DNA from: Bacteroidota bacterium
GTDB lineage: Bacteria; Bacteroidota; Bacteroidia; Bacteroidales; CG2-30-32-10
DNA length: 35,543 nucleotides
Reading direction: 5' to 3'
Assembly (NCBI GenBank): GCA_013334735.1
Contig: JAAXXA010000002.1
Location: 1 to 35,543, forward strand
Under the pieces are notes generated by a model, which was not told the origin of the DNA, searched no databases, and saw only the letters and a list, made by a program, of their open reading frames with translations. Below are positions 2,953-35,486 of this stretch, one piece after another. Positions within the stretch are counted from its first letter, which is position 1. Each line of letters starts with the position of its first letter. Both the position numbers and the translations under genes were made by a program.

Positions 2953-3108
2953 TCATTTTTTATTTTTTTCTAAAAATTCAATTAATATAGTTTTAACAAG
3001 GTTTGAAATTGGCCTATTTTGTCTTACAGCCTCATCGTTAAGACCCTTCAATAATTCTTCAGAAATGCGAAGATTAAACCTTTTGTTATTTATTTGTCCA
3101 ACATCCAT
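2953..3108 (-). CDS. Ribbon-helix-helix (CopG/Arc-like) DNA-binding protein, 51 aa
   Basis: Hand translation gives MDVGQINNKRFNLRISEELLKGLNDEAVRQNRPISNLVKTILIEFLEKNKK. This fits the classic RHH pattern (beta strand KRFNLRI, then two helices). AAGGACGG lies upstream. The ORF is below the ORF-track cutoff. Confidence 0.75.
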   Translation of the reverse strand: MDVGQINNKRFNLRISEELLKGLNDEAVRQNRPISNLVKTILIEFLEKNKK

Positions 3109-3150
3109 AATAACCGTCCTTTTATAAATTTTGCAGCCATTTTAGGAAAT

Positions 3151-3190
3151 TTGCACGACCCTTCCATAAATTTATGCTTTTTTGCACGAC
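3151..3190. promoter_or_regulatory. Direct repeat TTGCACGAC x2 (period 31 nt) upstream of the RHH gene; operator-like
   Basis: Copies lie at 3151-3159 and 3182-3190 (GTCGTGCAA on the minus strand). The spacing is about 3 helical turns. Confidence 0.4.
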
Positions 3191-3244
3191 TTCGGACGTG
3201 CTTTAAGTGGTTTAATGCGGCATTGCTGCCGCACCCGTCACCAT

Positions 3245-3340
3245 TTAATAATTTTGTATAATTAGTCTGTCAGTTCCTTCAATTTTTATGACTGTTGTAT
3301 GATTTTCTAAATCTTCCGTAAATCCTATAGTTACCTTCAT
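3245..3340 (-). CDS. Possible 31-aa ORF
   Basis: GGAAGGAG lies upstream of the ATG at 3340. The translation is MKVTIGFTEDLENHTTVIKIEGTDRLIIQNY. It is very short, so confidence is low. Confidence 0.35.
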   Translation of the reverse strand: MKVTIGFTEDLENHTTVIKIEGTDRLIIQNY

Positions 3341-3352
3341 AAAATCTCCTTC

Positions 3353-3517
3353 CTATTTACTTTTAGGTTTTTTCTCTTGCTGTTGGTTGTTATCATATGC
3401 GCTAGAAGCGATTGCAACGGCCTGCTCTTGAGATTTACCCTCATTGATAAGGATTGAGGCTATTCTTGCGATGTATTGATCTTTCGTTTCTCCTGTATTT
3501 GGATTCGGTATCGGCAT
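3353..3517 (-). CDS. Small protein (54 aa)
   Basis: The translation is MPIPNPNTGETKDQYIARIASILINEGKSQEQAVAIASSAYDNNQQQEKKPKSK. It is the first ORF downstream of the 3581 promoter. Confidence 0.55.
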   Translation of the reverse strand: MPIPNPNTGETKDQYIARIASILINEGKSQEQAVAIASSAYDNNQQQEKKPKSK

Positions 3518-5375: not shown

Positions 5376-5501
5376 ATGACAAATTTAGATATGGCATTAC
5401 TGATAGACAGGTATAGAAGAGAGATATGTAGATTATGTAATGTATTGAAGTTAGAAATAATATTTGAGAATGATGGGGTAATATGGAGAATAAGATATTA
5501 A
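5376..5501 (+). CDS. Possible 41-aa ORF overlapping the terS start
   Basis: AGGGGT lies upstream of the ATG at 5376. The translation is MTNLDMALLIDRYRREICRLCNVLKLEIIFENDGVIWRIRY. Support is weak. Confidence 0.25.
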   Translation: MTNLDMALLIDRYRREICRLCNVLKLEIIFENDGVIWRIRY

Positions 5502-6106
5502 AGAAAAAGTATATAGTAGATAATTTGTATAAGTATTTAACAGTTAAGCAGCAGAGATTATTTGATTTATATTATTTGTTTAACAGGGATACATTAAAGG
5601 CTGCAAGGATGTATATAAAAGAGACGGGTGGGAAAGAAGGAAGGAACGGAGAGATAGCGATAAAGTCACATTACAGGAATTATCCAATATTAAGATTAGC
5701 GATAGAAGTTAATGATTGTAATATAAGTGATTTATCTGAGGAAGAGCCAATAGAAAGTCCAACTCTTGAGTGGACATTAGTGGAGACGATGAAACTGTAT
5801 AAGCATACTGAGAAAGAGTTTTTTAAATATGAAGAGAAAGTGAGTGAATGGAAAGAAGAGTATGGTACTATTGAACAATTAATAGAGATGAGGGATAAAT
5901 ATAAGAAGGAGATGAAAGAGTTGCTAAAGCAGATTACTGACTTTCAGAATAAGTTTGGTGAGATGCTTAATGATGATAGTTTAAAAATTGGTATGTTAAG
6001 TGACTCTGATTTAATGACAGAACTAAAAAAGTATACGAATGAGGCACAGGAATATTTAGCTAAAGAAAAGTGGTATAATAGGAATAAAATAAAAGAAGTG
6101 GCTTAG
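5483..6106 (+). CDS. terS: Putative terminase small subunit
   Basis: It lies immediately upstream of terL. The N-terminal LTVKQQRLFDLYYLF...KAARMY resembles the HTH start of small terminases (LTxKQxxF...). Confidence 0.55.
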   Translation: MENKILKKKYIVDNLYKYLTVKQQRLFDLYYLFNRDTLKAARMYIKETGGKEGRNGEIAIKSHYRNYPILRLAIEVNDCNISDLSEEEPIESPTLEWTLVETMKLYKHTEKEFFKYEEKVSEWKEEYGTIEQLIEMRDKYKKEMKELLKQITDFQNKFGEMLNDDSLKIGMLSDSDLMTELKKYTNEAQEYLAKEKWYNRNKIKEVA

Positions 6107-7723
6107 ATGGAAGTAAACAATGATTTAATTAACAAAAGTAATCAATATAAATTTGTTTATTTAAAGAGACTGATTATAGAACTAAGGGCAAGACAGAAAG
6201 AATTTTACTATAGTTATGAACCGCCTTCTGAGAAACATTATTTACTTCATTCGTGCGGCAAGAAGATATTGATACTCAAAGGGGCACCACGTACAGCAAA
6301 AACGACATCTGTGCTTATGGATGCCGCTATGATTATGAAAGATGAGCATCCATTTATTACTAAGTATAAGAACATACCGGACTTAAAAAAAAGGTGTTGG
6401 GTGATTGCTACTAACTTTAAGAAAGTGCAAGAAGTATTACTGCCAATGTTTCTGAATGTTATTCCTAAAGTGAATATTAAAAATGTATGGAATGATCCTA
6501 GAAATAATAAATATGTCATTGAGTTAAATACTGGGTGGCATATTTTATTTAAGTCTCAGGAAGAAAAGATCGGCACTATTACCTCAGCTGACGCTTCAAT
6601 AATCATTATGGATGAACGTGTTGATAGTGAAGACTGGAGAGAGCAAATACGAAGCCGTGTTATTTCTACGGATGGTATGCTTTACTTCACTATGGATAGT
6701 AACGAAGAAGATGAATGGGTACACGGGCTTAAGCAGTTGTCTTACTCTCAATTGTTTCACTTTGAGTTAAAAGATAATGCTAAGAATCTTCCTAAGGAAG
6801 AACTGGATAGGCTTGAAAATGAATTGGATGATATAGCTAAAGAAAAGTTGCTTTATGGTAACTACGCTAATAGAGATATCGTTTATATTTTTAAACCTGA
6901 TATCTGGAACGAATCAAACTATGTTGAGATTCAACCTAAAAGATTTAGCATAGCTTACGGAGAGTTAACGCCTGATGAAGAAGGCTATATCAGAATGTTT
7001 AAAGATGTTCAGTCAAATGTAAAGTATGTAGTGGGATTTGACCCTTGCGGTGGGGGTGGAAGAAATAGCCATGGGTTGCATGTGTTCGATGAGTTTGGAG
7101 AACAATGTCTCATGATGATCGATAGTAAAATATCTTATGTCAACGCTCCAGAATTATTTATTATGCCTATTTTGAACTATTACAATAAAGCTTTATTTGT
7201 TAGTGAAAACAGAGAGCATGGAAGATATGTGGTAAATAAAATGAATGATCTTGGATATTATAATTTATATTCGGATCAGATGTGGAAGCCAATGGAAAGC
7301 TCAAAGGGCGTACTAAAAACTCAGATTGAGTTTGGAATTATTACTACAGAAAAAAGTAAAAAGGATATGAAGAATAAGACACTGGATGATATTGTAAATG
7401 GGAAAATATTACTCCACGATAGACTGACTAAAATGCAGTTAGAACATTTTGTGGAAGATTATAAAGACAGGGATAGCCAGAAGCTTGAACCTAAAATGCA
7501 CGGTATTAAAATTATGGGAGAACCGGATTTAAAAAACAGTGATGATGATTTGGTTATGTCTTTATTTTTTACTGATAGGGCCTTAAATCATCTTGGTTAT
7601 TTAAACAATGTGATAAGACAAAACAGGTCTAAAAAACCAATGATGAAAACTATAGATGACTTATTGAACATAAAAGTAATACGTCAGGGTGGCGGTGGGT
7701 TTTATCAAAGTTTAGGATATTAG
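6107..7723 (+). CDS. terL: Terminase large subunit
   Basis: It has a Walker A-like LKGAPRTAKT, a Walker B IIIMDE, and a C-terminal nuclease-like region (VVGFDPCGGGG). Size and position are typical. Confidence 0.9.
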   Translation: MEVNNDLINKSNQYKFVYLKRLIIELRARQKEFYYSYEPPSEKHYLLHSCGKKILILKGAPRTAKTTSVLMDAAMIMKDEHPFITKYKNIPDLKKRCWVIATNFKKVQEVLLPMFLNVIPKVNIKNVWNDPRNNKYVIELNTGWHILFKSQEEKIGTITSADASIIIMDERVDSEDWREQIRSRVISTDGMLYFTMDSNEEDEWVHGLKQLSYSQLFHFELKDNAKNLPKEELDRLENELDDIAKEKLLYGNYANRDIVYIFKPDIWNESNYVEIQPKRFSIAYGELTPDEEGYIRMFKDVQSNVKYVVGFDPCGGGGRNSHGLHVFDEFGEQCLMMIDSKISYVNAPELFIMPILNYYNKALFVSENREHGRYVVNKMNDLGYYNLYSDQMWKPMESSKGVLKTQIEFGIITTEKSKKDMKNKTLDDIVNGKILLHDRLTKMQLEHFVEDYKDRDSQKLEPKMHGIKIMGEPDLKNSDDDLVMSLFFTDRALNHLGYLNNVIRQNRSKKPMMKTIDDLLNIKVIRQGGGGFYQSLGY

Positions 7724-8044: not shown

Positions 8045-10048
8045 ATGGATTTATCCAAAGTAGTTATCACTAAACGTGATATTACTAATATCAAAAATCT
8101 TGAGTATATTGAAAATCTTAATTTTAAGACACTAGATCAATTTAGAGCTGAGGCTGAAAAACATTATACTGATATTTCTAAAGACTTTCAGTATATTAAA
8201 GAGTTTGTTATCGAAAATAAACAGTGGAATTTTTTCGATGATAAAGTTAAAACTAAAATGTATAACTACGCTGGGCAAGAACTCTATGATTTTTATAAGA
8301 CTTATAATAAAGAACAAGATTTAAAAAAGCCAAAACGTTCTATCAATATTACTAAGACATATCTTGAAACCCTTGTTGCTTCTTTTGCCGAAATAGACCC
8401 TCTGCCTATGGCAATAAGTAAATATGACTATAATATTAAAGATGAAACAAATGATAAGATCAATATATTACTAAATAGCATTTTTAATGAAGAAAATAAT
8501 TTTGATGAGCTTTATGAAGAAGCTTTGTTTAAATCATTTTGTTATCAATATTGTTTTATTCAGCCCGTTATTGATATTGACAAATCAGAAACACGCACTC
8601 CTATCAAACTAAGAATTATTGACCCTGAAGATGTGCGAATCGACCCAATGGCTAAAGATTTGAATGAATGCGACTATCTTTATCAGAAAGTAAAAATGAG
8701 ATATTGGCAAATTAAAGAATTGTGGAACTATGAAGAAGAAATAAAAAAAGATGATGAACCTAAAGATAACGAGATGTGTGATTTAATACACTGGTGGTTT
8801 AGAGGGAAAAACCCTGACGGTAAAACACAGTGGTATTTATTTACTGAGTATGATAAAAAATGGTTAAAGCCTATCGATAAAAAAGGAAAGTTTTATCCTG
8901 AAATGATTGTGTTTGATCATCTTCCTCTCGTTAAATTCTGTCCTGAAAAATATAAAGACGAAACGTCCAGCGATTCTCTGGCTCTTGAAATTATTCCTAT
9001 CAACATTCAGTATAACATTAATCTTAGTGAAGAAGACTATAACATGCTGAGATGGTATAACAGGCCGAAAAAAGTGATTGGTTCTATCCCAGTTGATATG
9101 GCTAATAATGCTAATATTCCTAATGGAGTTATGTCAATAGGGCCAGGTTCTGATGTTGTTCCCTATCAAGTCGATATTCTTCCAACCGCTGAACTTGAAC
9201 AAAGAAAACAATTCCTAAACCAAGAAGTAAAACAAGCTACCGGTATAGACTTTGAACTTCTGGCAGGAGGAAAACCTAAAGGTACGTATTCAAATAATCT
9301 ATTACAAACAATGCAGAGTAAAGCAGATAATAAAACTGATATGATGCAAAAGCATATTTTTTCCGCCATAGAAGAACTGGCATATAAAGCATTGTATCTA
9401 CAATATAGATACATGGATGGAAAAAGCATAGTTATTTTTGATGGCAAAATACAAGATAGCATTGTTATTCATCCGGATGATATTTTAAATATTAAATATA
9501 AAATTGAGATTGATACTAAAGATACCAATCTTATGACACGTGAAACTAAGTTTCAAACTCTCACTCAATTTATGCAGTACAGTCAGGGTAATCCTCTCAT
9601 ACTTTATCCAATGGCTCAAGTATTACAAAATGGCATGCCTCACTTTTTCCCTGATAAAGTGATGGACGCTTTTGGGATTATGTTTGGAAAAGCTATAGAT
9701 CAATTAAGTGCTACTCAACTTCCTCCTAATGGGATTGCATCTTCACAACCAGCTCCTTTTAACCAGACTTTGGCTGCTGGAATGTCTAACCAGCTTCCAG
9801 TAGCTGGAGCTGGTAGTGAAATGCCAGAAGAAGATAATACGGACGGAGTTTCAAATGAACAGCTTTTGAATGAATGGAAAAACGCTGAAGATCAATTGAA
9901 AGAAGCTGGATATAGCGAAGATCAGATAAATGAGTTTTATGACGCTCTTGTAGCGGAGAAAATAGCGGATGGTACTCCAAGAGGAGAAATTATTATGAAT
10001 TTAGAAGAAGCAGTAAATAAGTCTGTAAATAATATGAAGAAAAAATAA
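8045..10048 (+). CDS. Putative portal protein (667 aa)
   Basis: Size and position fit: after terL and before the scaffold and capsid genes. AAGGAG RBS. No motif-level confirmation is possible by eye. Confidence 0.65.
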   Translation: MDLSKVVITKRDITNIKNLEYIENLNFKTLDQFRAEAEKHYTDISKDFQYIKEFVIENKQWNFFDDKVKTKMYNYAGQELYDFYKTYNKEQDLKKPKRSINITKTYLETLVASFAEIDPLPMAISKYDYNIKDETNDKINILLNSIFNEENNFDELYEEALFKSFCYQYCFIQPVIDIDKSETRTPIKLRIIDPEDVRIDPMAKDLNECDYLYQKVKMRYWQIKELWNYEEEIKKDDEPKDNEMCDLIHWWFRGKNPDGKTQWYLFTEYDKKWLKPIDKKGKFYPEMIVFDHLPLVKFCPEKYKDETSSDSLALEIIPINIQYNINLSEEDYNMLRWYNRPKKVIGSIPVDMANNANIPNGVMSIGPGSDVVPYQVDILPTAELEQRKQFLNQEVKQATGIDFELLAGGKPKGTYSNNLLQTMQSKADNKTDMMQKHIFSAIEELAYKALYLQYRYMDGKSIVIFDGKIQDSIVIHPDDILNIKYKIEIDTKDTNLMTRETKFQTLTQFMQYSQGNPLILYPMAQVLQNGMPHFFPDKVMDAFGIMFGKAIDQLSATQLPPNGIASSQPAPFNQTLAAGMSNQLPVAGAGSEMPEEDNTDGVSNEQLLNEWKNAEDQLKEAGYSEDQINEFYDALVAEKIADGTPRGEIIMNLEEAVNKSVNNMKKK

Positions 10049-27282: not shown

Positions 27283-27954
27283 ATGAATTTACCAAAGTTT
27301 AGTTTAGAAGGTATAGAGGGAAATACAAAAATAGCTTTGAATGGGGTATTAAAATATTTACAAGATAAAGATGATTTTATTAATAAGTTATATGGTAAAA
27401 CAAAAGATATAAATTTTACTACTGATGGTACGTTAGCAAATAATTCTGATAATAATTTTCCTTCAGAGAAAGCTATTGTTACTTATACTACAAGACAAAT
27501 ATTTATAGTAAGCGAGCAACAACCAGCCAATACATCAGGAGGCACTTTTACATCGGGAGCTGACAGACAAAGGGTTTTAAACACTATCGTGCTAAACACT
27601 ATTTCAGGTGCGTCGCTTGGCTCTAATAATATTACTCTCCCAATAGGGTTATACAAAATAATGGCAAGCTGTCCGGCAAATGCTTGCGATACAAATATAG
27701 CTTGGTTGTATAATTTGGGATTAACAACAAAAGTGGTGTTAGGGACATCACAACATAGTGCACAAACAAACAACGTAGAGGAGAGAAGCATAATTAATGG
27801 GTATTTTACTGTTACAGATACATCGGCAAACAAAAATGTGTTTCAAATTTTGCATAGATGCACAACAACAAAATCCACAGATGGGTTTGGTCTCGCTGCT
27901 AATTTAGGCACAAACGAAACATATACAATATGCGAAATAGAAAAAATAGGATAA
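27283..27954 (+). CDS. Putative tail fibre or receptor-binding protein (223 aa)
   Basis: It lies at the end of the structural block. The N-terminal FPSEKAIVTY resembles the conserved fibre N-terminal motif (PSEKAV..Y). Confidence 0.45.
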   Translation: MNLPKFSLEGIEGNTKIALNGVLKYLQDKDDFINKLYGKTKDINFTTDGTLANNSDNNFPSEKAIVTYTTRQIFIVSEQQPANTSGGTFTSGADRQRVLNTIVLNTISGASLGSNNITLPIGLYKIMASCPANACDTNIAWLYNLGLTTKVVLGTSQHSAQTNNVEERSIINGYFTVTDTSANKNVFQILHRCTTTKSTDGFGLAANLGTNETYTICEIEKIG

Positions 27955-27972: not shown

Positions 27973-28350
27973 ATGAGCGAGGACAAAATGCCAAGACTTG
28001 ATATGAGCTACGAAATTATTAAAGAGCAGTGGGAAGATTTTAAGACAAATATTTTATCTCAGATTAATGAAATAAAAGAAAACATTCGGCGATTATCAGA
28101 TGAACAAAGAGTTTTTCTTAAACTGCAAAACGACATCGAGTTGAAAAGAGAAAAACAGATCGCCGAAATCAATCTTGAAATTATGTCTCAGAAAAAAGAT
28201 TGTGATAAATGCAGGAGTGGATTTCAAAACAGAATAGAAACTCTGGAAAAAGCTCCCGAGCGTACAAAATCAAATTGGCAATTTTTGACAGCCATTCTAT
28301 TTGGATTGTTAGGTGTTATTATATCCGCTATAGCGTTATTCAGGAGGTAA
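27973..28350 (+). CDS. Coiled-coil protein with a C-terminal membrane anchor (125 aa), lysis-region
   Basis: The C-terminus WQFLTAILFGLLGVIISAIALFRR is hydrophobic. It is adjacent to the holin-like ORF. Confidence 0.6.
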   Translation: MSEDKMPRLDMSYEIIKEQWEDFKTNILSQINEIKENIRRLSDEQRVFLKLQNDIELKREKQIAEINLEIMSQKKDCDKCRSGFQNRIETLEKAPERTKSNWQFLTAILFGLLGVIISAIALFRR

Positions 28351-28352
28351 AT

Positions 28353-28556
28353 GTGTTTGATTTTTTAAAAGAAATGATTAGTGGCCCAAAAGGGGAAATT
28401 TCTTCCAAAAGAGTTTTAGGAACAATATGTGTTATTGCTGGGATAGTATTTGCTTTTATATCTGTTTTGGGAGGAAAACCGGATGCAGCGACATGCGGAA
28501 TAATTTTTGGGACAGGCGCAACATTTCTAACTGCGGCCGCAATATCGCACACTTGA
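28353..28556 (+). CDS. Holin-like two-TM protein (67 aa, GTG start)
   Basis: AGGAGG lies 5 nt upstream of the GTG at 28353. There are two hydrophobic helices (LGTICVIAGIVFAFISVLG; CGIIFGTGATFLTAAAI). The longer ORF-track version (28209) overlaps the previous gene in another frame. Confidence 0.55.
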   Translation: MFDFLKEMISGPKGEISSKRVLGTICVIAGIVFAFISVLGGKPDAATCGIIFGTGATFLTAAAISHT

Positions 28557-28674: not shown

Positions 28675-28719
28675 ATTCTAACACAAAAATAATTTTTGTC
28701 AATCACCCTAAAAGTCGGA
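28675..28719 (-). promoter_or_regulatory. Leftward promoter P_B: TCCGACT element + TTGACA-16-TGtTAGAAT
   Basis: The -35 is at 28702..28697, the -10 at 28680..28675, and the element at 28713-28719. It points antisense toward the end of the late operon. Confidence 0.5.
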
Positions 28720-28735
28720 TTTTTTATTTATATAC

Positions 28736-28777
28736 TCCGACCAAAAGTCGGAATGCACTCCGACTAAAAGTCGGAAT
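28736..28777. promoter_or_regulatory. Two tandem palindromic sites ACTCCGACYAAAAGTCGGAAT (TCCGAC-N5-GTCGGA), operator-like
   Basis: Copies lie at 28736-28754 and 28759-28777 (period 23 nt), between P_B and the 28803 gene. Confidence 0.6.
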
Positions 28778-28802: not shown

Positions 28803-29069
28803 ATGAAATGGCCTAGAATGCACCATACTAGTTTATTTATAGCTAGCTTTTTAGCTATATTGGGATTAACACTATGGATTGTTGGGTATATACAGGGATG
28901 GAGAGATGTAGCAAACTCAAAAGACTATATAGCTGATCTAGGAATGCTTATCCCAATAATCATTATATTTTTAGGGTTTTCGATTATTGCTTATTTTATT
29001 ACCAGGGCTTTTGATTGCAAAGATATGAATCTAAAAATGATTGAGAAAAAAGAAAATAAGGAGGAATAG
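28803..29069 (+). CDS. Two-TM membrane protein (88 aa), holin-like
   Basis: AAGGAGG RBS and two long hydrophobic helices. Confidence 0.65.
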   Translation: MKWPRMHHTSLFIASFLAILGLTLWIVGYIQGWRDVANSKDYIADLGMLIPIIIIFLGFSIIAYFITRAFDCKDMNLKMIEKKENKEE

Positions 29070-29071
29070 TA

Positions 29072-29521
29072 ATGTGGAAAAAATTATTATTGATCTGCTT
29101 GCGAAATATAAAACTGTTGTCATTGCTTTTATCATTGGTACTACTATCGGAAGCTCAGGGTTTTGGCTCAACAAACGAGACGCTGATAATTACAAGAGGA
29201 CAGCTAAACAGCTTAGTGACAATCTCGTCGAATCTCAAAAGCGAATTGGTGAAATCTCAAACCAGTTGCGCATTGCTACTCTCAGAGCTGGCGAACTCGA
29301 AGCGTCTATTAACATCAATATCTCAGGAGCTAACCAACTCGCAGCAAACATCGGAAACGCTATCTCAGACATTAACGACATCGGAAGAATCTTGGAAGAC
29401 ATACAAAAAGGAAACTGATGCTAGGATACAAGAGCTTCAAGGACAGCAGGTTTTATGGATTGCGGGCGGTATCGGGATAGGTGTTACCGGTATAGTGATA
29501 GGAATCTTATTGCATAAGTGA
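29072..29521 (+). CDS. Alternative overlapping ORF (frame A, 149 aa) with a C-terminal TM segment
   Basis: The ATG lies 7 nt after AAGGAGG, and the frame is open across all of frame B. Only its last ~34 codons (29419-29521, VLWIAGGIGIGVTGIVIGILLHK) look like genuine coding sequence. Confidence 0.35.
   Translation: MWKKLLLICLRNIKLLSLLLSLVLLSEAQGFGSTNETLIITRGQLNSLVTISSNLKSELVKSQTSCALLLSELANSKRLLTSISQELTNSQQTSETLSQTLTTSEESWKTYKKETDARIQELQGQQVLWIAGGIGIGVTGIVIGILLHK
29074..29418 (+). CDS. N-terminally anchored coiled-coil protein, i-spanin-like (GTG start, frame B)
   Basis: It has purine-first codon periodicity and a plausible sequence (VIAFIIGTTIGSSGFW TM, then a coiled coil). It shares the AAGGAGG RBS with the ATG of frame A. 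Confidence 0.55.
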   Translation: MEKIIIDLLAKYKTVVIAFIIGTTIGSSGFWLNKRDADNYKRTAKQLSDNLVESQKRIGEISNQLRIATLRAGELEASININISGANQLAANIGNAISDINDIGRILEDIQKGN

Positions 29522-29529
29522 GGTGAAAT

Positions 29530-29628
29530 ATGCGGTGGTATTGGATAGTAATTATGATTTTGTCTCTAATAATACTCTATTTATTTTTCAAGTGTGGCTA
29601 TATTAATGTCAATAATTTCCCATGGTAG
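29530..29628 (+). CDS. Possible 32-aa hydrophobic peptide
   Basis: AGGTGA RBS. The translation is MRWYWIVIMILSLIILYLFFKCGYINVNNFPW. Confidence 0.35.
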   Translation: MRWYWIVIMILSLIILYLFFKCGYINVNNFPW

Positions 29629-29633
29629 GTGCT

Positions 29634-29801
29634 TATGCAATGCTTATTTGTCGAAGAAAAATACTGCAAACTGCATGAAATAATGTGTACTGGGAAATGT
29701 AAGGATTATGAGGATGATCTGAGCGATACTGAATTATCGAATGAGAAAATTGCGCCAACAAAGAAGGAGAAAATCTATGAAAATATTAGAGGTCAAGAGG
29801 G
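29634..29801 (+). CDS. Possible 55-aa Cys-rich ORF
   Basis: The translation is MQCLFVEEKYCKLHEIMCTGKCKDYEDD.... It overlaps the next start by 25 nt. Support is weak. Confidence 0.3.
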
Positions 29802-30319
29802 GCGGTAGCTCGATTAATTTCCGGTGTACTAACGGAGATCGTTATGATAGCTCTGCTGTATTGCTGGATGATAGAGGGTTTGAGATATTTTCCTCTCAAT
29901 ATGTCAATACCGATTCCACAAACAGCTACAAGGGTGGTCGCCTTTCCTGCGGGTGTTACTATGGGATAGTTGGATATAGGACCTCCGGTCAAAGAGTGAT
30001 AAAACTATTTTCTAGCAAAGCAGATATTACTAAGATCAAAACAGATAGAGACATTCCAGATTCAATGTTTGCTCTTTCATCAGATATACCTAATTCTAAC
30101 CATGACAATGCATATTATATTGAGTATGTTCAAATTCATTCAGGGGGCACAAGCTGGGATTATAGTCATGGATGTGTTTCTGTTTTAAACTATGGATTAA
30201 ATCCTAACGGAAAAAAATATGAAGAATTTGATAGATTGATGTCTTTTCTAAAAGACAATGAAATCATAATCATCAAACTTTCTCTCGACGAAGGAGTCAA
30301 AACTTTTACGCAGCAATAA
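29777..30319 (+). CDS. Candidate endolysin with an SHGC (YkuD/L,D-transpeptidase-like) motif (180 aa from MKILEV)
   Basis: AAGGAG RBS at the internal Met. IHSGGTSWDYSHGCVSV resembles the His...SHGC catalytic signature, though the His-to-Cys spacing is shorter than in the canonical motif. It is the last gene of the lysis region. Confidence 0.4.
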   Translation: MKILEVKRGGSSINFRCTNGDRYDSSAVLLDDRGFEIFSSQYVNTDSTNSYKGGRLSCGCYYGIVGYRTSGQRVIKLFSSKADITKIKTDRDIPDSMFALSSDIPNSNHDNAYYIEYVQIHSGGTSWDYSHGCVSVLNYGLNPNGKKYEEFDRLMSFLKDNEIIIIKLSLDEGVKTFTQQ

Positions 30320-32657: not shown

Positions 32658-32981
32658 TTAATCTTTGCTTGTTTCTATAACTTTGTTAATACCATATTCT
32701 ATTATATTATATCCGGTGCGATATATTTTTCCGTGTTCACTATTTTTATAAAATTTTTCATCTGGTAATTTATCTATAGTTGCCTTTTTCCATTTTTCAT
32801 ATTCTTCCCAATCACAAGATAAATAAGTTGTTCCATCAGATCGGGTTAGTATTCTATTTCCACTAGAAATAGCTTTTTTTTTCAAATAATTAACAATTGC
32901 TTTTAAAGCGTTTTCTTTTGTGTCAGACATAACATGATAAGATAATCCATAATCATTGTATTCAAAAGAATATAATTTCAT
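32658..32981 (-). CDS. Hypothetical 107-aa protein in the sugar operon
   Basis: ATGA overlap with the rfbH-like stop. No motif. Confidence 0.7.
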   Translation of the reverse strand: MKLYSFEYNDYGLSYHVMSDTKENALKAIVNYLKKKAISSGNRILTRSDGTTYLSCDWEEYEKWKKATIDKLPDEKFYKNSEHGKIYRTGYNIIEYGINKVIETSKD

Positions 32982-34174
32982 ACAAAATACTCCTCAATAG
33001 TTTTTACAATATAGTCTATTTCCTTCTTTCCAATGCCTGGATGGCAGCCTATCCACAATGTATTTTCAGATACATAATCAGCTATTGGATAATCCTGTTT
33101 ATCGCTATAAGAAAGATAGGCTGGATGCTTAGTAAAGTTACCAGCAAATAGAGGGCGTGTAGCTATTCCTTTTGATTCTAAATAATCAACAAATTGTTTT
33201 CTTCTGTTTTTATTAGAGAGTGTCATGGGGAATCCAAACCATGAAGGAATAGAATCTTTTTCAAATCCATGGAGTTTTAAATCTTTTATGTGTTTTAATT
33301 TCCCAAACAATGTAGAGTTATTCAATACTCTTTTTACTACAAACTTATCTAATCTTTTAAATTGAGCCACACCAATAGAAGCGCATAATTCAGGCATTTT
33401 TAGATTGTATCCAATATGTTCTACCACTGACTTGTGATCATAGCCAAAAGGAAGCTTTCCATATTTCTGAGAGAATCTTTTTCCGCAAAGATTATCTTTA
33501 TTTGGAGGACAAACACAAGCCCTTCCCCAGTTACAATAAGACTGGATAATATTATATAACTCAGTATCATTAGTACAGACCGCCCCTCCCTCGCCTGTAG
33601 TAATGTGATGAGCTGGATAAAAACTTAGTGTTGATATGTGTCCGAATGAACCTGTCTTTTTTTCTTTATACACACTTCCTAAAGCGTCGCAGTTGTCTTC
33701 AATCAACCATAGCTTATGCTTCTTGCAGATAGCCATAATCTTTGTCATGTTGCACGGATTCCCAAGTGTATGCACTATGAATATTGCCTTAGTCTTTTTA
33801 GTTATTTTAGATTCTATTTGATTCTCGTCAATATTAAGTGTATCCAATTTGATATCTACAAACACAGGCACTAGGTTGTTTTGTAATATTGGGTTTAAAG
33901 TAGTAGGAAATCCGCATATAGAAGTAATAACTTCATCTCCAGCTTTAATATGGTTCTTGAGATTTGGAGAAGTTAATGCTGTCATTGCTAACAAGTTAGC
34001 TGAAGACCCTGAATTACAAAGAGCAGTATGTTTTACTCCAAGATATTCTGATAATAGTTTAGGAAGTATTCTTGTGTTTTTCCCTGCCGCATAATCGCCT
34101 TTAAATACTGCTTTAATAAGCGTCCATATTTCTGGAAGTCCTGTGATAGCTTTTCCTGTTGTAATTCGTTTCAT
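32978..34174 (-). CDS. rfbH: RfbH/DdhC (E1)-type PMP-dependent CDP-4-keto-6-deoxyglucose 3-dehydratase
   Basis: Several blocks match Salmonella RfbH as I recall it: SGSSANLLAMTALTSP, GDEVITSICGFPTTLNP, SFYPAHHITTGEGGAV (His in place of the PLP Lys), NWGRACVCPPNKDNLCGKRF (Fe-S Cys cluster), GYDHK, PSWFGFPMTL. Confidence 0.9.
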   Translation of the reverse strand: MKRITTGKAITGLPEIWTLIKAVFKGDYAAGKNTRILPKLLSEYLGVKHTALCNSGSSANLLAMTALTSPNLKNHIKAGDEVITSICGFPTTLNPILQNNLVPVFVDIKLDTLNIDENQIESKITKKTKAIFIVHTLGNPCNMTKIMAICKKHKLWLIEDNCDALGSVYKEKKTGSFGHISTLSFYPAHHITTGEGGAVCTNDTELYNIIQSYCNWGRACVCPPNKDNLCGKRFSQKYGKLPFGYDHKSVVEHIGYNLKMPELCASIGVAQFKRLDKFVVKRVLNNSTLFGKLKHIKDLKLHGFEKDSIPSWFGFPMTLSNKNRRKQFVDYLESKGIATRPLFAGNFTKHPAYLSYSDKQDYPIADYVSENTLWIGCHPGIGKKEIDYIVKTIEEYFV

Positions 34175-34177
34175 TAG

Positions 34178-34891
34178 TTACTCCTTATAATTATCAATAT
34201 AACTTTTTAGTTTTGACACTTCTAAATCTCTCAGTCCTTGTGTGCCTTGATAAACAGCTTGATCGTAAGCGAACCAATTATTCATCTCATCTATAATCAA
34301 TTGATCAGGTTCTACTTTCATAAGCACAGGGCTGGAATGTTCAACCTCTATTTCTTTCAAGTATTCAGTTTTTCCAAGCTTTGAAAATACATAGTATATC
34401 CAGTTGTCAGAGAAGTAATGCTTTAACATATGACACGAATAATTTCTTGTTACCTGCAAGTAATTTTTATGAACTATATAATGACGAGGCAATGTTTCAC
34501 TTCCGGCTCCATCATTAATCCACCTACAAAATATTTTATCTTTTGTGTCTGACTTGAATTTATCTATAATAATCTTATCCCAATCTTTTGTTTTAAATTC
34601 AAGATCATTTGACACAGCAAATAACAATTCATTGTTTGCCATCTGCCCTAAGTAATTAAACTTATCATTGAGATGGTACGGACGTTTAAATTGGTGTAAT
34701 TGATAATCCAATTCTAAATCATTGACGTCTAACTTTTGAAAGAATTCATACAACTGGTCTTCTTCATCTACGTCATAGCCAAACACTATTTCAATATTTT
34801 CTGGATCGTTAACAGTATCAATAATAGATTGCAAACACTTTTTTAGTTTCTCAAGTCGTCCTCTTGTAGCTAGCAATAATGATATCTTCAT
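34178..34891 (-). CDS. Putative GT-A/GT2-like glycosyltransferase (start moved to MKISLLL)
   Basis: AAGGAGG lies upstream of the ATG at 34891. The N-terminus MKISLLLATRGRLEKLKKCLQSIIDT...IEIVFGYDVDEED fits the GT2-like layout. Confidence 0.45.
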   Translation of the reverse strand: MKISLLLATRGRLEKLKKCLQSIIDTVNDPENIEIVFGYDVDEEDQLYEFFQKLDVNDLELDYQLHQFKRPYHLNDKFNYLGQMANNELLFAVSNDLEFKTKDWDKIIIDKFKSDTKDKIFCRWINDGAGSETLPRHYIVHKNYLQVTRNYSCHMLKHYFSDNWIYYVFSKLGKTEYLKEIEVEHSSPVLMKVEPDQLIIDEMNNWFAYDQAVYQGTQGLRDLEVSKLKSYIDNYKE

Positions 34892-34901
34892 GTTTCCTCC
34901 T

Positions 34902-35486
34902 TTATAAACTTGGCAATAATACTTGGTTAGGATCACACATTACTTCGCATATACATGGATTTTTACTATTAATTATTTCATCCAAGCGTTTATCAATTAA
35001 TCCTATATCATCAATTAAATCCCATCGAATGTCATAAGCTTCTGAAAGTGATAATAAATAAGGAAATTTAAAATCAGTTCCATTCCTTGCGCCATTAAAA
35101 AACTTATTGCTTGTGTTTTTTATAGTGAGATACCCGCCATTATTAATCACAAATAGTTTAACATTGAGATTATAATTTCTTATAGTAATCAATTCCTGTA
35201 TGTTAAATTGAAAACTTCCATCACCTGTTAATCCTATCACTGGCCTGTTATCAGCAACAGCCGCTCCCACACAAGCAGGCAATGTAAATCCCATCTCTGC
35301 CTGACTGCTTGTGATATATCTCATTCCTTCTTTAAGCTTTAATGCTTGAGGACAAGCAAAAAATACTGAGCCAGCGTCTGCTATAACTACTGCGTTATCT
35401 GGAAGATGGTCTGATAGCTTTTCTAAAAAATAATAAAGATTAATATTATTATCTGAATTAATTAAATGAGATTGAATTTCCATCAT
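34902..35486 (-). CDS. Thiamine-diphosphate-binding (PP) domain protein, acetolactate-synthase/YerE-like C-terminal module only
   Basis: GLTGDGSFQFNIQELITIRNYNLNVKLFVINNGGY is the ThDP-binding GDG...NN motif. At 194 aa it is only the C-terminal third of a full-length enzyme. Confidence 0.85.
   Translation of the reverse strand: MMEIQSHLINSDNNINLYYFLEKLSDHLPDNAVVIADAGSVFFACPQALKLKEGMRYITSSQAEMGFTLPACVGAAVADNRPVIGLTGDGSFQFNIQELITIRNYNLNVKLFVINNGGYLTIKNTSNKFFNGARNGTDFKFPYLLSLSEAYDIRWDLIDDIGLIDKRLDEIINSKNPCICEVMCDPNQVLLPSL

Follow-up and report, generated by a model that had tools for sequence, protein, structure and literature searches.

Two fully overlapping frames behind one ribosome-binding site: a probable dual-coding gene pair with a possible spanin-type role in the lysis region of uncultivated phages

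In phage lambda, the lysis proteins S105 and S107 are made in a fixed ratio from a pair of start codons that are separated by a few nucleotides and share a ribosome-binding site (RBS). For spanin genes, four layouts are recognised, namely embedded, overlapped, separated and unimolecular (PMC6139136), a scheme that is used also in PMC12596118. We describe here a locus, A/B, that lies outside all four classes by its total overlap, its inverted nesting and its out-of-frame starts on one RBS. The locus is carried by the 35,543-nucleotide contig JAAXXA010000002.1 of assembly GCA_013334735.1, which was analysed at its full length and is called the window throughout. Comparison with related loci makes it likely that A/B is a true dual-coding locus whose products form a lysis-cassette pair acting as a spanin-type system. 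Dual coding taken by itself is, to judge from the reading frames of the relatives, very probable, and a spanin-type function, proposed by analogy, has in our estimate slightly less than an even chance. The layout was not found described in the literature on spanins in spirochaetes and Treponema or on overlapping and dual-coding spanin genes, nor does a curated family exist for it.

The two genes occupy two frames of a single stretch and begin at the out-of-frame double start ATGTG, in which the ATG opens gene A and the GTG opens gene B (Table 1). The distance from the Shine-Dalgarno sequence AAGGAGG is 7 nucleotides (nt) for the start of A and 9 nt for that of B, and both spacings are workable. 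Gene B lies wholly inside A: all 114 of its codons are overlapped and about 345 bases are shared by the two frames, A being the +1 frame of B and B the -1 frame of A, while the third frame of the overlap is closed by many stops. Only positions 29419-29449 and 29450-29518 of A are singly coded, and this tail ends in VLWIAGGIGIGVTGIVIGILLHK. The upstream 88-amino acid (aa) gene terminates with a TAG at 29067-29069, and no promoter or terminator signal was found that divides A/B from its neighbours. The coordinates that the first-pass annotation of this DNA had given for AAGGAGG, ATGTG, both frames and their stops, the A5 run (29405-29409) and the hydrophobic tail were all confirmed in the sequence. 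An independent assembly of the source run (a biofilm metagenome, depth about 9.7) yielded the same sequence with no indel, as a contig and not as a read pile-up; the source sequence is present in one DNA run only.

Evidence for dual coding came from the relatives of the locus. An exhaustive HMMER search with protein B gave three homologues of 117-124 aa (contigs L001, L002/L003 and L004), and in all of them a full-length frame-A open reading frame (ORF) is also present, ends in the same kind of transmembrane tail and starts 2 nt (GTGTG, ATGTG) or 5 nt (ATGaaATG) ahead of B. The identity to the closest relatives is 45-50% for A and 37-40% for B. A profile of frame A recovered 16 database proteins already called as genes (P0007-P0022; 107-155 aa) and a profile of frame B recovered 19 (P0001 and P0023-P0040; 108-145 aa), to which the exhaustive search adds P0002-P0004. 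Gene callers report one gene of the pair per contig, A in some and B in others, and thus both families are split and under-annotated in public databases. The calling of each gene in its own set of clusters shows that the two frames both have coding character. After grouping of contigs (L001/L005, L002/L003/L007, L004, L006/L008/L019, L009/L010, L011/L012, L013/L020, L014, L015, L016, L017, L018 and L021), 14 distinct loci including the window were available. None of them has a stop in either frame over the full length of the overlap (105-133 codons), while stops abound in the third frame, and in the most distant loci the identity of protein A to that of the window drops to about 20-30%. The first-pass annotation had proposed this comparison and had named frame-A stops in relatives, together with an independent start for the membrane segment, as the outcome that would refute its reading; the result was the opposite, as no relative has a frame-A stop. 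Among cultured phages, the region as DNA, the A protein of the window and three related proteins gave no match in 50,697 GenBank phage records.

The two ends of the overlap are also conserved. The stop of B keeps its place in nearly all relatives, 18-33 codons short of the end of A and just before the C-terminal membrane helix of A, and the B-type proteins of the relatives measure 108-127 aa, with the exception of P0029, which reads through to 145 aa. The paired starts are always close: they are nowhere more than about 30 nt apart, and in most loci the distance is 2-5 nt. The form ATGTG, with A first, is found in the window, L002 and L013, GTGTG in L001, ATGaaATG in L004, ATGnATG with B first in L017 and L018 (also in L014 if A uses an internal ATG) and ATTtATG in L009 and L016; wider spacings of 11-31 nt occur in L006, L011, L015 and L021. 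Purine-rich sites of the GGAGG or GGGGA type precede the paired starts in most relatives. Toward the other end, the best-conserved stretch of the overlap reads [YF]-[KE]-K-E in frame A and [IV]-[QR]-K-(R)-G in frame B of the relatives.

That frame A stays open over the whole of B, which had been singled out at first reading, proved to be far from what chance would give. When the B protein was kept fixed and its codons were redrawn 100,000 times from the usage of the 15 structural genes of the phage, frame A contained a mean of 12.9 stops, and none of the draws was free of them (P<1e-5). The longest off-frame open run in these 15 structural genes spans 102 codons, within a gene of 1541 codons. 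Synonymous shuffling within each gene is a more conservative test, as it keeps the gene's own adapted codon usage. Under it, A-preserving shuffles gave 1.4-6.3 frame-B stops per locus, with the probability of none ranging from 0.16 to <1e-4, and B-preserving shuffles gave 1.1-3.4 frame-A stops per locus, with probabilities from 0.16 to 5e-4. Over about nine deeply diverged lineages the open frames cannot be a coincidence in either direction.

The codons of B carry the mark of the second frame. The excess of C-ending codons reported earlier for the region was borne out by the counts: ATC makes up 9 of 19 Ile codons in B (13% genome-wide), CTC 5 of 10 Leu codons (5%), AAC 8 of 11 Asn codons (26%) and GAC 5 of 7 Asp codons (23%). 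This excess results from the overlap, because the third codon position of B is the second position of A and A is rich in Ser and Thr. The Leu and Ile codons favoured by the phage, which create stops in the +1 frame, are nearly missing from B (TTA 0/10, ATA 1/19), and the use of ATC, CTC, AAC and GAC instead of TTA and ATA accounts for the local rise in G+C content (0.39 versus about 0.33).

Selection on the two protein sequences was assessed with a resampling null in which one protein of each of two relatives was fixed, the synonymous codons were redrawn and the alignment of the other frame was rescored. For B given A, the observed alignment score was 4.0-10.0 standard deviations (z) above the null in all pairs except window-L014 (z = 1.0), and for A given B it was 4.2-10.7 above. 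In neighbouring single-coded genes the codon identity at conserved residues is about 0.33-0.56, that is, at the chance level; their synonymous sites are saturated and hence the null is fair. Codon identity at conserved residues showed no clear rise in the overlap, and in distant pairs the divergence by codon position is close to saturation. Classical synonymous-rate suppression, the measure suggested in the first-pass annotation, is therefore unusable here, and ORF maintenance and the resampling null are the usable measures. In the closest pairs the divergence is flat over the codon positions (0.10/0.13/0.14 in L009-L011), with no third-position peak, and in a four-class count of substitutions in close pairs the changes silent in both frames are enriched and those altering both are depleted. 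These comparisons indicate that the arrangement is ancient and has been maintained by selection in a family of uncultivated phages and prophages.

Both products are predicted membrane proteins with helical bodies. Protein B has an N-terminal transmembrane domain (TMD; about aa 14-30) followed by a helical domain that ends in ..GRILEDIQKGN. In the window and in all relatives its hydropathy segment lies within aa 4-30 with Lys residues before it, a pattern predicting an N-in, C-out orientation, and every B relative has a single N-terminal TMD and an ..I(R/Q)xRGK end; several B lineages also carry a Cys in a conserved ..E-C-Q-S-I.. motif near the end. Protein A consists of an N-terminal hydrophobic signal or anchor (aa 5-29), a short loop and one helix (aa 42-148) that runs into the C-terminal TMD, with the cytoplasmic tail HK. 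Its AlphaFold model is all-alpha with a mean predicted local distance difference test (pLDDT) score of 85.5, rising to 95-97 over residues 50-120. The family motif ..ES[FW]xQYKKE..RI..L..Q(R)N stands just before the TMD, and every related A has an N-terminal hydrophobic segment and a visible C-terminal one, three of the latter falling just under a crude threshold. About half of the A lineages, among them L006, L009, L011, L013, L017, L018 and L021 and several called proteins, carry a lipobox-like Cys where the signal ends (VTAC, LRAC, SASC, SVSC, WPGC, VTLC, PATC). This Cys is absent from the window, L001, L002, L004, P0007, P0008, P0016-18, P0019 and P0020. In the A of the window, C9 and C66 fit no lipobox and no Cys stands at the signal end. 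The lipobox-less signals of the window's subclade and of some others have signal-peptidase-I-like ends (..SEAQG/FGS, ..ASAWA/EE), and C66, which is predicted to be periplasmic, is conserved in the window's clade.

The locus lies in a region that resembles a lysis cassette. The order in the window is a tail fibre gene (27283-27954), an XhlA-like 125-aa protein, two small holin-like proteins, A/B, a 32-aa hydrophobic ORF, a 180-aa protein and a convergent antirepressor gene. Counterparts of the 125-aa gene are present in L001, L004 and L021, and a gene for a similar protein of 62-77 aa occupies the position of the first small holin-like gene in the same three contigs. The 180-aa protein has no Pfam, PHROG, PDB or IMG/VR match; its invariant residues N-x-N-H ... 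I-H-x-G ... S-x-G-C make it a candidate new endolysin type with a His/Cys pattern like that of YkuD-type L,D-transpeptidases. In the window and L001 the pair lies between holin-like genes and this candidate enzyme; in L006, L009, L013-L018 and L021 it immediately follows a holin and an endolysin of the Amidase_2, Amidase_3 or glucosaminidase type. It is often the last late gene ahead of an integrase or recombinase gene, and spanins are found in such a position of the lysis region (PMC6139136). The endolysins beside the pair are all 143-193 aa long and lack a wall-binding domain. Small single-domain endolysins are typical of phages with double-membraned hosts. The host is known for one relative only: the L001/L005 prophage lies on a contig of 602 kb that belongs to a metagenome-assembled genome of Spirochaetota, a diderm phylum. 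The A/B pair and the 180-aa gene are the sole genes common to the window and this spirochaete prophage, so that its host is not transferable to the window.

Table 1. Coordinates of A/B and of neighbouring features of the putative lysis cassette in the window
Feature	Positions	Strand	Basis or remark
125-aa coiled-coil protein, C-terminal TMD, XhlA/holin-like	27973..28350	+	phrog_2990 5.8e-5, phrog_937 'hemolysin' 0.0067, phrog_689 holin 0.01; weak
2-TMD holin-like protein, 64 aa	28362..28556	+	Internal ATG of ORF 28209-28556; suggested by topology
88-aa membrane protein, 2 TMDs, charged C-terminus, holin-like	28803..29069	+	Suggested by topology; abuts A/B upstream
Shine-Dalgarno AAGGAGG	29058..29064	+	Serves both starts; inside last codons of upstream 88-aa gene
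Out-of-frame double start ATGTG	29072..29076	+	Sequence
Gene A, 149 aa	29072..29521	+	ATG at 29072, stop 29519-29521
Gene B, 114 aa	29074..29418	+	GTG at 29074, stop 29416-29418
Dual hydrophobic stretch	29113..29163	+	TMD of B, TVVIAFIIGTTIGSSGF, in one frame; core of signal of A, LLSLLLSLVLLS, in the other
Best-conserved overlap stretch	29399..29415	+	A: W-K-T-Y-K-K-E; B: D-I-Q-K-G-N; contains A5 run
C-terminal TMD of A, aa 127-149	29450..29518	+	Hydropathy, codon usage; singly coded
180-aa candidate endolysin	29777..30319	+	L001 counterpart 5494-6036; conserved residues

Some further elements of this region are recorded here for themselves. The 32-aa hydrophobic ORF (MRWYWIVIMILSLIILYLFFKC..., 29530-29628, + strand) directly follows A, has its own GAGGTG site and is absent from this place in L001 and L004. 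The holin-like genes are separated by a gap of 245 nt that contains three exact copies of AAAAGTCGGA (28710-28775, +), where 0.05 would be expected by chance. Two of the copies are preceded by TCCGAC and form tandem 6-bp hairpins, TCCGAC-N5-GTCGGA, at 28736-28752 and 28759-28775, and the first copy is followed by T6; the repeats may be a regulatory or attenuator-like element in the lysis cassette. Next to them, the minus strand carries a strong promoter-like site (28702-28675, 11/12 matches).

In the proposed mechanism A and B would be the final component of the lysis cassette. A single initiation region would feed both frames, and with a shared RBS the two proteins would be made together, in an A:B ratio fixed by their start codons. 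Protein B would insert in the cytoplasmic membrane N-in/C-out and expose a helical domain outside it. Protein A would be exported by its Sec-type signal and held by the C-terminal TMD (N-out, C-in), with about 90 residues forming a continuous helix, and where a lipobox is present the lipidated N-terminus would tether it to the outer membrane. The helical ectodomains of A and B could then span the periplasm and disrupt or fuse the membranes once the wall has been degraded by the endolysin, which is the action proposed for Rz-Rz1 and gp11. In the lipobox-less lineages, the window included, either the N-terminal hydrophobic segment would engage the outer layer or the mechanism would differ.

Profile searches of Pfam and PDB with the A and B families returned generic coiled coils only and no Pfam family. 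The B of the window matches phrog_214 marginally (E = 0.017), and seven Rz-like PHROG families each match one B-family member, again marginally (E 4e-4 to 9e-3); Rz-like spanin families are the only function-labelled PHROG matches of the B-type proteins (E 4e-4 to 0.02). For the A-type proteins the hits comprise coiled-coil families, a single Rz-like family (2 members, 1.9e-5) and, with two members, phrog_937, the 'hemolysin' family of XhlA type. The outer-membrane lipoprotein partner of an inner-membrane spanin (i-spanin) is missing in the window, where A is without a lipobox, and is present in about half of the related lineages. An outer-membrane spanin (o-spanin) has a lipobox and a short proline-rich mature part, and the mature part of A is helical, is about 115 aa long and includes a TMD. 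Of the features of unimolecular spanins (u-spanins), A has the C-terminal TMD (aa 127-149, conserved in the family), lacks the lipoprotein signal in the window and does not have the beta-rich, periplasmic-Cys-free domain (PMC6139136). Because A departs from the lipobox and beta-rich patterns and the similarity of B to Rz is not significant, neither protein was assigned to a spanin family, and we infer, by analogy, that the pair works like spanins.

Several observations weigh against the proposal that both proteins are made and act as spanins. As to B, L009 and L016 (2997-2999) have ATT where other lineages carry the ATG of B, 4 nt before the start of A, and in L009 an in-frame upstream ATG for B is cut off by a TGA; B may start at AUU or be weakly expressed in these two loci. 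The AlphaFold helix of B (34-113) has low confidence (pLDDT 62). In the four-class count A-silent changes are more enriched than B-silent ones, and family-wide the second position of A, which is the third of B, is the most conserved. The substitution classes thus point to clear selection on A and weak selection on the residues of B, which is the main caveat for B. As to function, the marginal Rz similarity of B could come from coiled-coil composition, and the A of the window and of its whole subclade lacks the lipobox cysteine, a defining feature of o-spanins and u-spanins, which makes the outer-membrane step in these lineages the weakest link of the mechanism. In addition, Holin_4_1, Amidase_3, the XhlA-like gene, a (large) serine recombinase and BclA_C in some contigs also fit Firmicutes phages, and the L011/L012 pair (3001-3438) lies among chromosomal genes, with a GntR regulator and UxuA upstream, MatE downstream and no endolysin or holin nearby, as either a prophage remnant or a pair in non-lysis use.

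These points give most room to the alternative that both proteins are made and are not spanins, forming instead a holin regulator or antiholin pair, another accessory of lysis timing or of the membrane, or a moron, that is, a cargo module placed where the late operon ends. Besides the missing lipobox in the window's subclade, the XhlA-like and holin_4_1 neighbours recall Firmicutes cassettes, the pair often sits between endolysin and integrase or recombinase genes, a site of cargo genes, and it occurs without phage neighbours in L011/L012, while two A members match the XhlA-type phrog_937. Nevertheless, its place right after the endolysin is constant across four unrelated endolysin types, its topology, a type II coiled-coil protein with a signal or lipobox protein, matches that of spanins, and the endolysins are of the diderm type, with one host being a spirochaete. 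On balance we regard a non-spanin role as unlikely, though it deserves serious consideration.

The caveats on B also bear on the possibility that A is the sole gene and the B ORF is open for another reason without being translated. Protein A is the more conserved of the two, has a confident model and a normal codon-position pattern, shows enrichment of A-synonymous changes, and has a partner without a canonical start in L009 and L016. Against this, B is open in all 14 loci in spite of the 1.4-6.3 stops predicted for each by the A-preserving shuffles, and its similarity exceeds the A-only null by 4-10 standard deviations in all pairs tested except window-L014 (z = 1.0). The TMD, the C-terminal motif and the stop position of B are conserved, B has the better codon usage in the window and gene callers chose it in 19 clusters. 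No mechanism is known by which off-frame stops would be selected against if the frame is not translated. We therefore consider an A-only locus improbable, and dual coding remains the preferred explanation.

The first-pass annotation had offered three options, an embedded or overlapped spanin pair, a +1 frameshift and an assembly indel, of which the first is supported here and the other two are not. It had seen in B a real gene and in the end of A an orphan membrane-coding extension. The extension is no orphan, since A is full-length and conserved, has its own start and signal, and has the transmembrane helix as its normal end. In a programmed +1 frameshift at CAA-AAA-GGA, tRNA-Lys would slip from AAA to AAG and fuse the body of B to the TMD of A, giving a protein anchored at both ends, with the upstream part of frame A untranslated. 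For the slip itself, which is chemically possible, speak the sequence CAAAAAGG shared by the window, L001 and L002 and a turn of codon usage from B to A at the junction: the codon-usage log-odds are +31 bits for B and -12 bits for A in the overlap, and +10 bits for A in the 34-codon extension. Because of this switch the window taken alone looks like a frame switch, and the relatives decide otherwise. Frame A is open from its own start beside the RBS in 14/14 loci, its conserved N-terminal signal would be needless for a fusion product, and the A-type proteins are full-length called genes of ordinary composition. The motif is not conserved: CAAAAAGG is confined to L001, L002 and the window, another sequence stands in its place in ten loci, and the junction reads CGAGAAGG in L004, CAAAATAGAGG in L009, CGAGAAAGAAG in L015 and CGCAATCGCGG in L017. 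The A-rich stretch is there because it encodes the conserved motifs of both proteins, [YF]-[KE]-K-E in A and [IV]-[QR]-K-(R)-G in B. GGA is the commonest Gly codon, so that there is no hungry codon, and no stimulatory element was seen. A hypothetical B-A fusion used as a query had the window itself as its sole match. A frameshift in place of dual coding is thus very improbable, and a minor B-A fusion product besides A and B is possible. The last option, that a sequencing or assembly indel in the error-prone A5 homopolymer has split one ORF, which the deletion of one A would restore by joining B to the membrane tail, can be dismissed, since the same two frames are found again in 13 independent loci, which come from different samples and were built with different assemblers, the B-type relatives stop at the same place (108-127 aa; P0029 excepted) and the independent contig from the source run is identical.

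Outside the lysis region, some features of the window are worth recording. The portal gene (8045-10048, +) is P22/SU10-like (E = 2e-9), and the large terminase (6107-7723, +) has its best matches, at 24-27%, in jumbo Klebsiella and Salmonella phages; with matches so remote there is no cultured relative for comparison. Two phage proteins of 1541 and 1250 aa have no family match, and no tRNA genes were found in the window. The early region contains a full-length type-P5 twister ribozyme (Rfam RF02684; 3185-3242, minus strand) with 50.3 bits versus a gathering score of 37.6 (E = 1e-7). On the minus strand, a DegT/DnrJ/EryC1-type sugar aminotransferase (32978-34174; E = 2e-90) neighbours a weak family-2 glycosyltransferase match (34178-34936; 20.1 bits, under the Pfam cut-off of 23.3 bits), and the two may form a surface-polysaccharide or DNA/sugar modification (conversion) module.

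A bolder suggestion, which we offer tentatively and hold to be less probable than a spanin-type function as such, is that A/B represents a fifth spanin architecture, in which an i-spanin-type gene is nested in, and co-initiated with, a gene of u-spanin topology, in phages of spirochaetes and perhaps of other uncultivated diderms. It would then connect two-component with unimolecular spanins as a living link, for which a route has been speculated in which an o-spanin in the +1 frame gains a C-terminal TMD (PMC6139136). The overlap would rank among the longest fully dual-coded stretches in a dsDNA (double-stranded DNA) phage, both products being predicted long helices, and the lipobox-less A, with its hydrophobic N-terminus, long helix and C-terminal TMD, would act in the manner of a miniature class-I-type fusogen. 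Should the function be confirmed, the pair would offer a testable model relating unimolecular to two-component spanins and would bear on the final step of lysis in envelopes of the spirochaete type, for which spanins are as yet undescribed. Apart from function, it would be a natural case of two predicted helical proteins sharing more than 110 codons over a long time, useful for overprinting studies and for the design of overlapping genes.

For nested genes in dsDNA phages, the overlapping spanin genes Rz/Rz1 are the textbook example. Among the known systems close to A/B is this lambda pair, in which two lysis proteins are likewise encoded in overlapping frames in a cassette beside the endolysin and, relative to the coiled-coil partner with its N-terminal anchor, the signal-bearing one is in the +1 frame (PMC6139136). 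In contrast, the 60-codon lipoprotein gene of lambda lies inside the i-spanin gene, whereas here the i-spanin-like B lies inside the longer A; A and B start at one RBS; and A is a helical protein of 150 aa with a C-terminal TMD rather than a short proline-rich lipoprotein, is without a lipobox in the window and, like B, shows no significant sequence similarity to the lambda proteins. With the u-spanin gp11 of T1, protein A shares an export signal, a C-terminal TMD, a length of about 130-155 aa and, often, the place of the last cassette gene (PMC6139136). Unlike u-spanins, which are predicted to be beta-rich, have no periplasmic cysteines and stand alone, A is predicted to be one long alpha-helix, has C66 in the window's clade and contains a second gene.

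The LysB/LysC pair of P2 resembles A/B in that the partner gene extends beyond the end of the i-spanin gene; the P2 overlap is partial and begins inside lysB, whereas here B is overlapped over 100% of its length and its start almost coincides with that of A. As in lambda S105/S107, two lysis proteins would be made from near-adjacent starts on one RBS, but the S starts share one frame and their products are almost identical, while the starts of A and B are out of frame and give unrelated sequences. Finally, the D/E and A/B pairs of phiX174 are also long same-strand overlaps encoding two proteins, one of them a lysis protein (PMC8227390). They belong to small single-stranded DNA genomes under size pressure and have one partner that is short or disordered, whereas the locus described here is in a 35-kb dsDNA phage and combines, in full overlap, two predicted helical membrane proteins of similar length.

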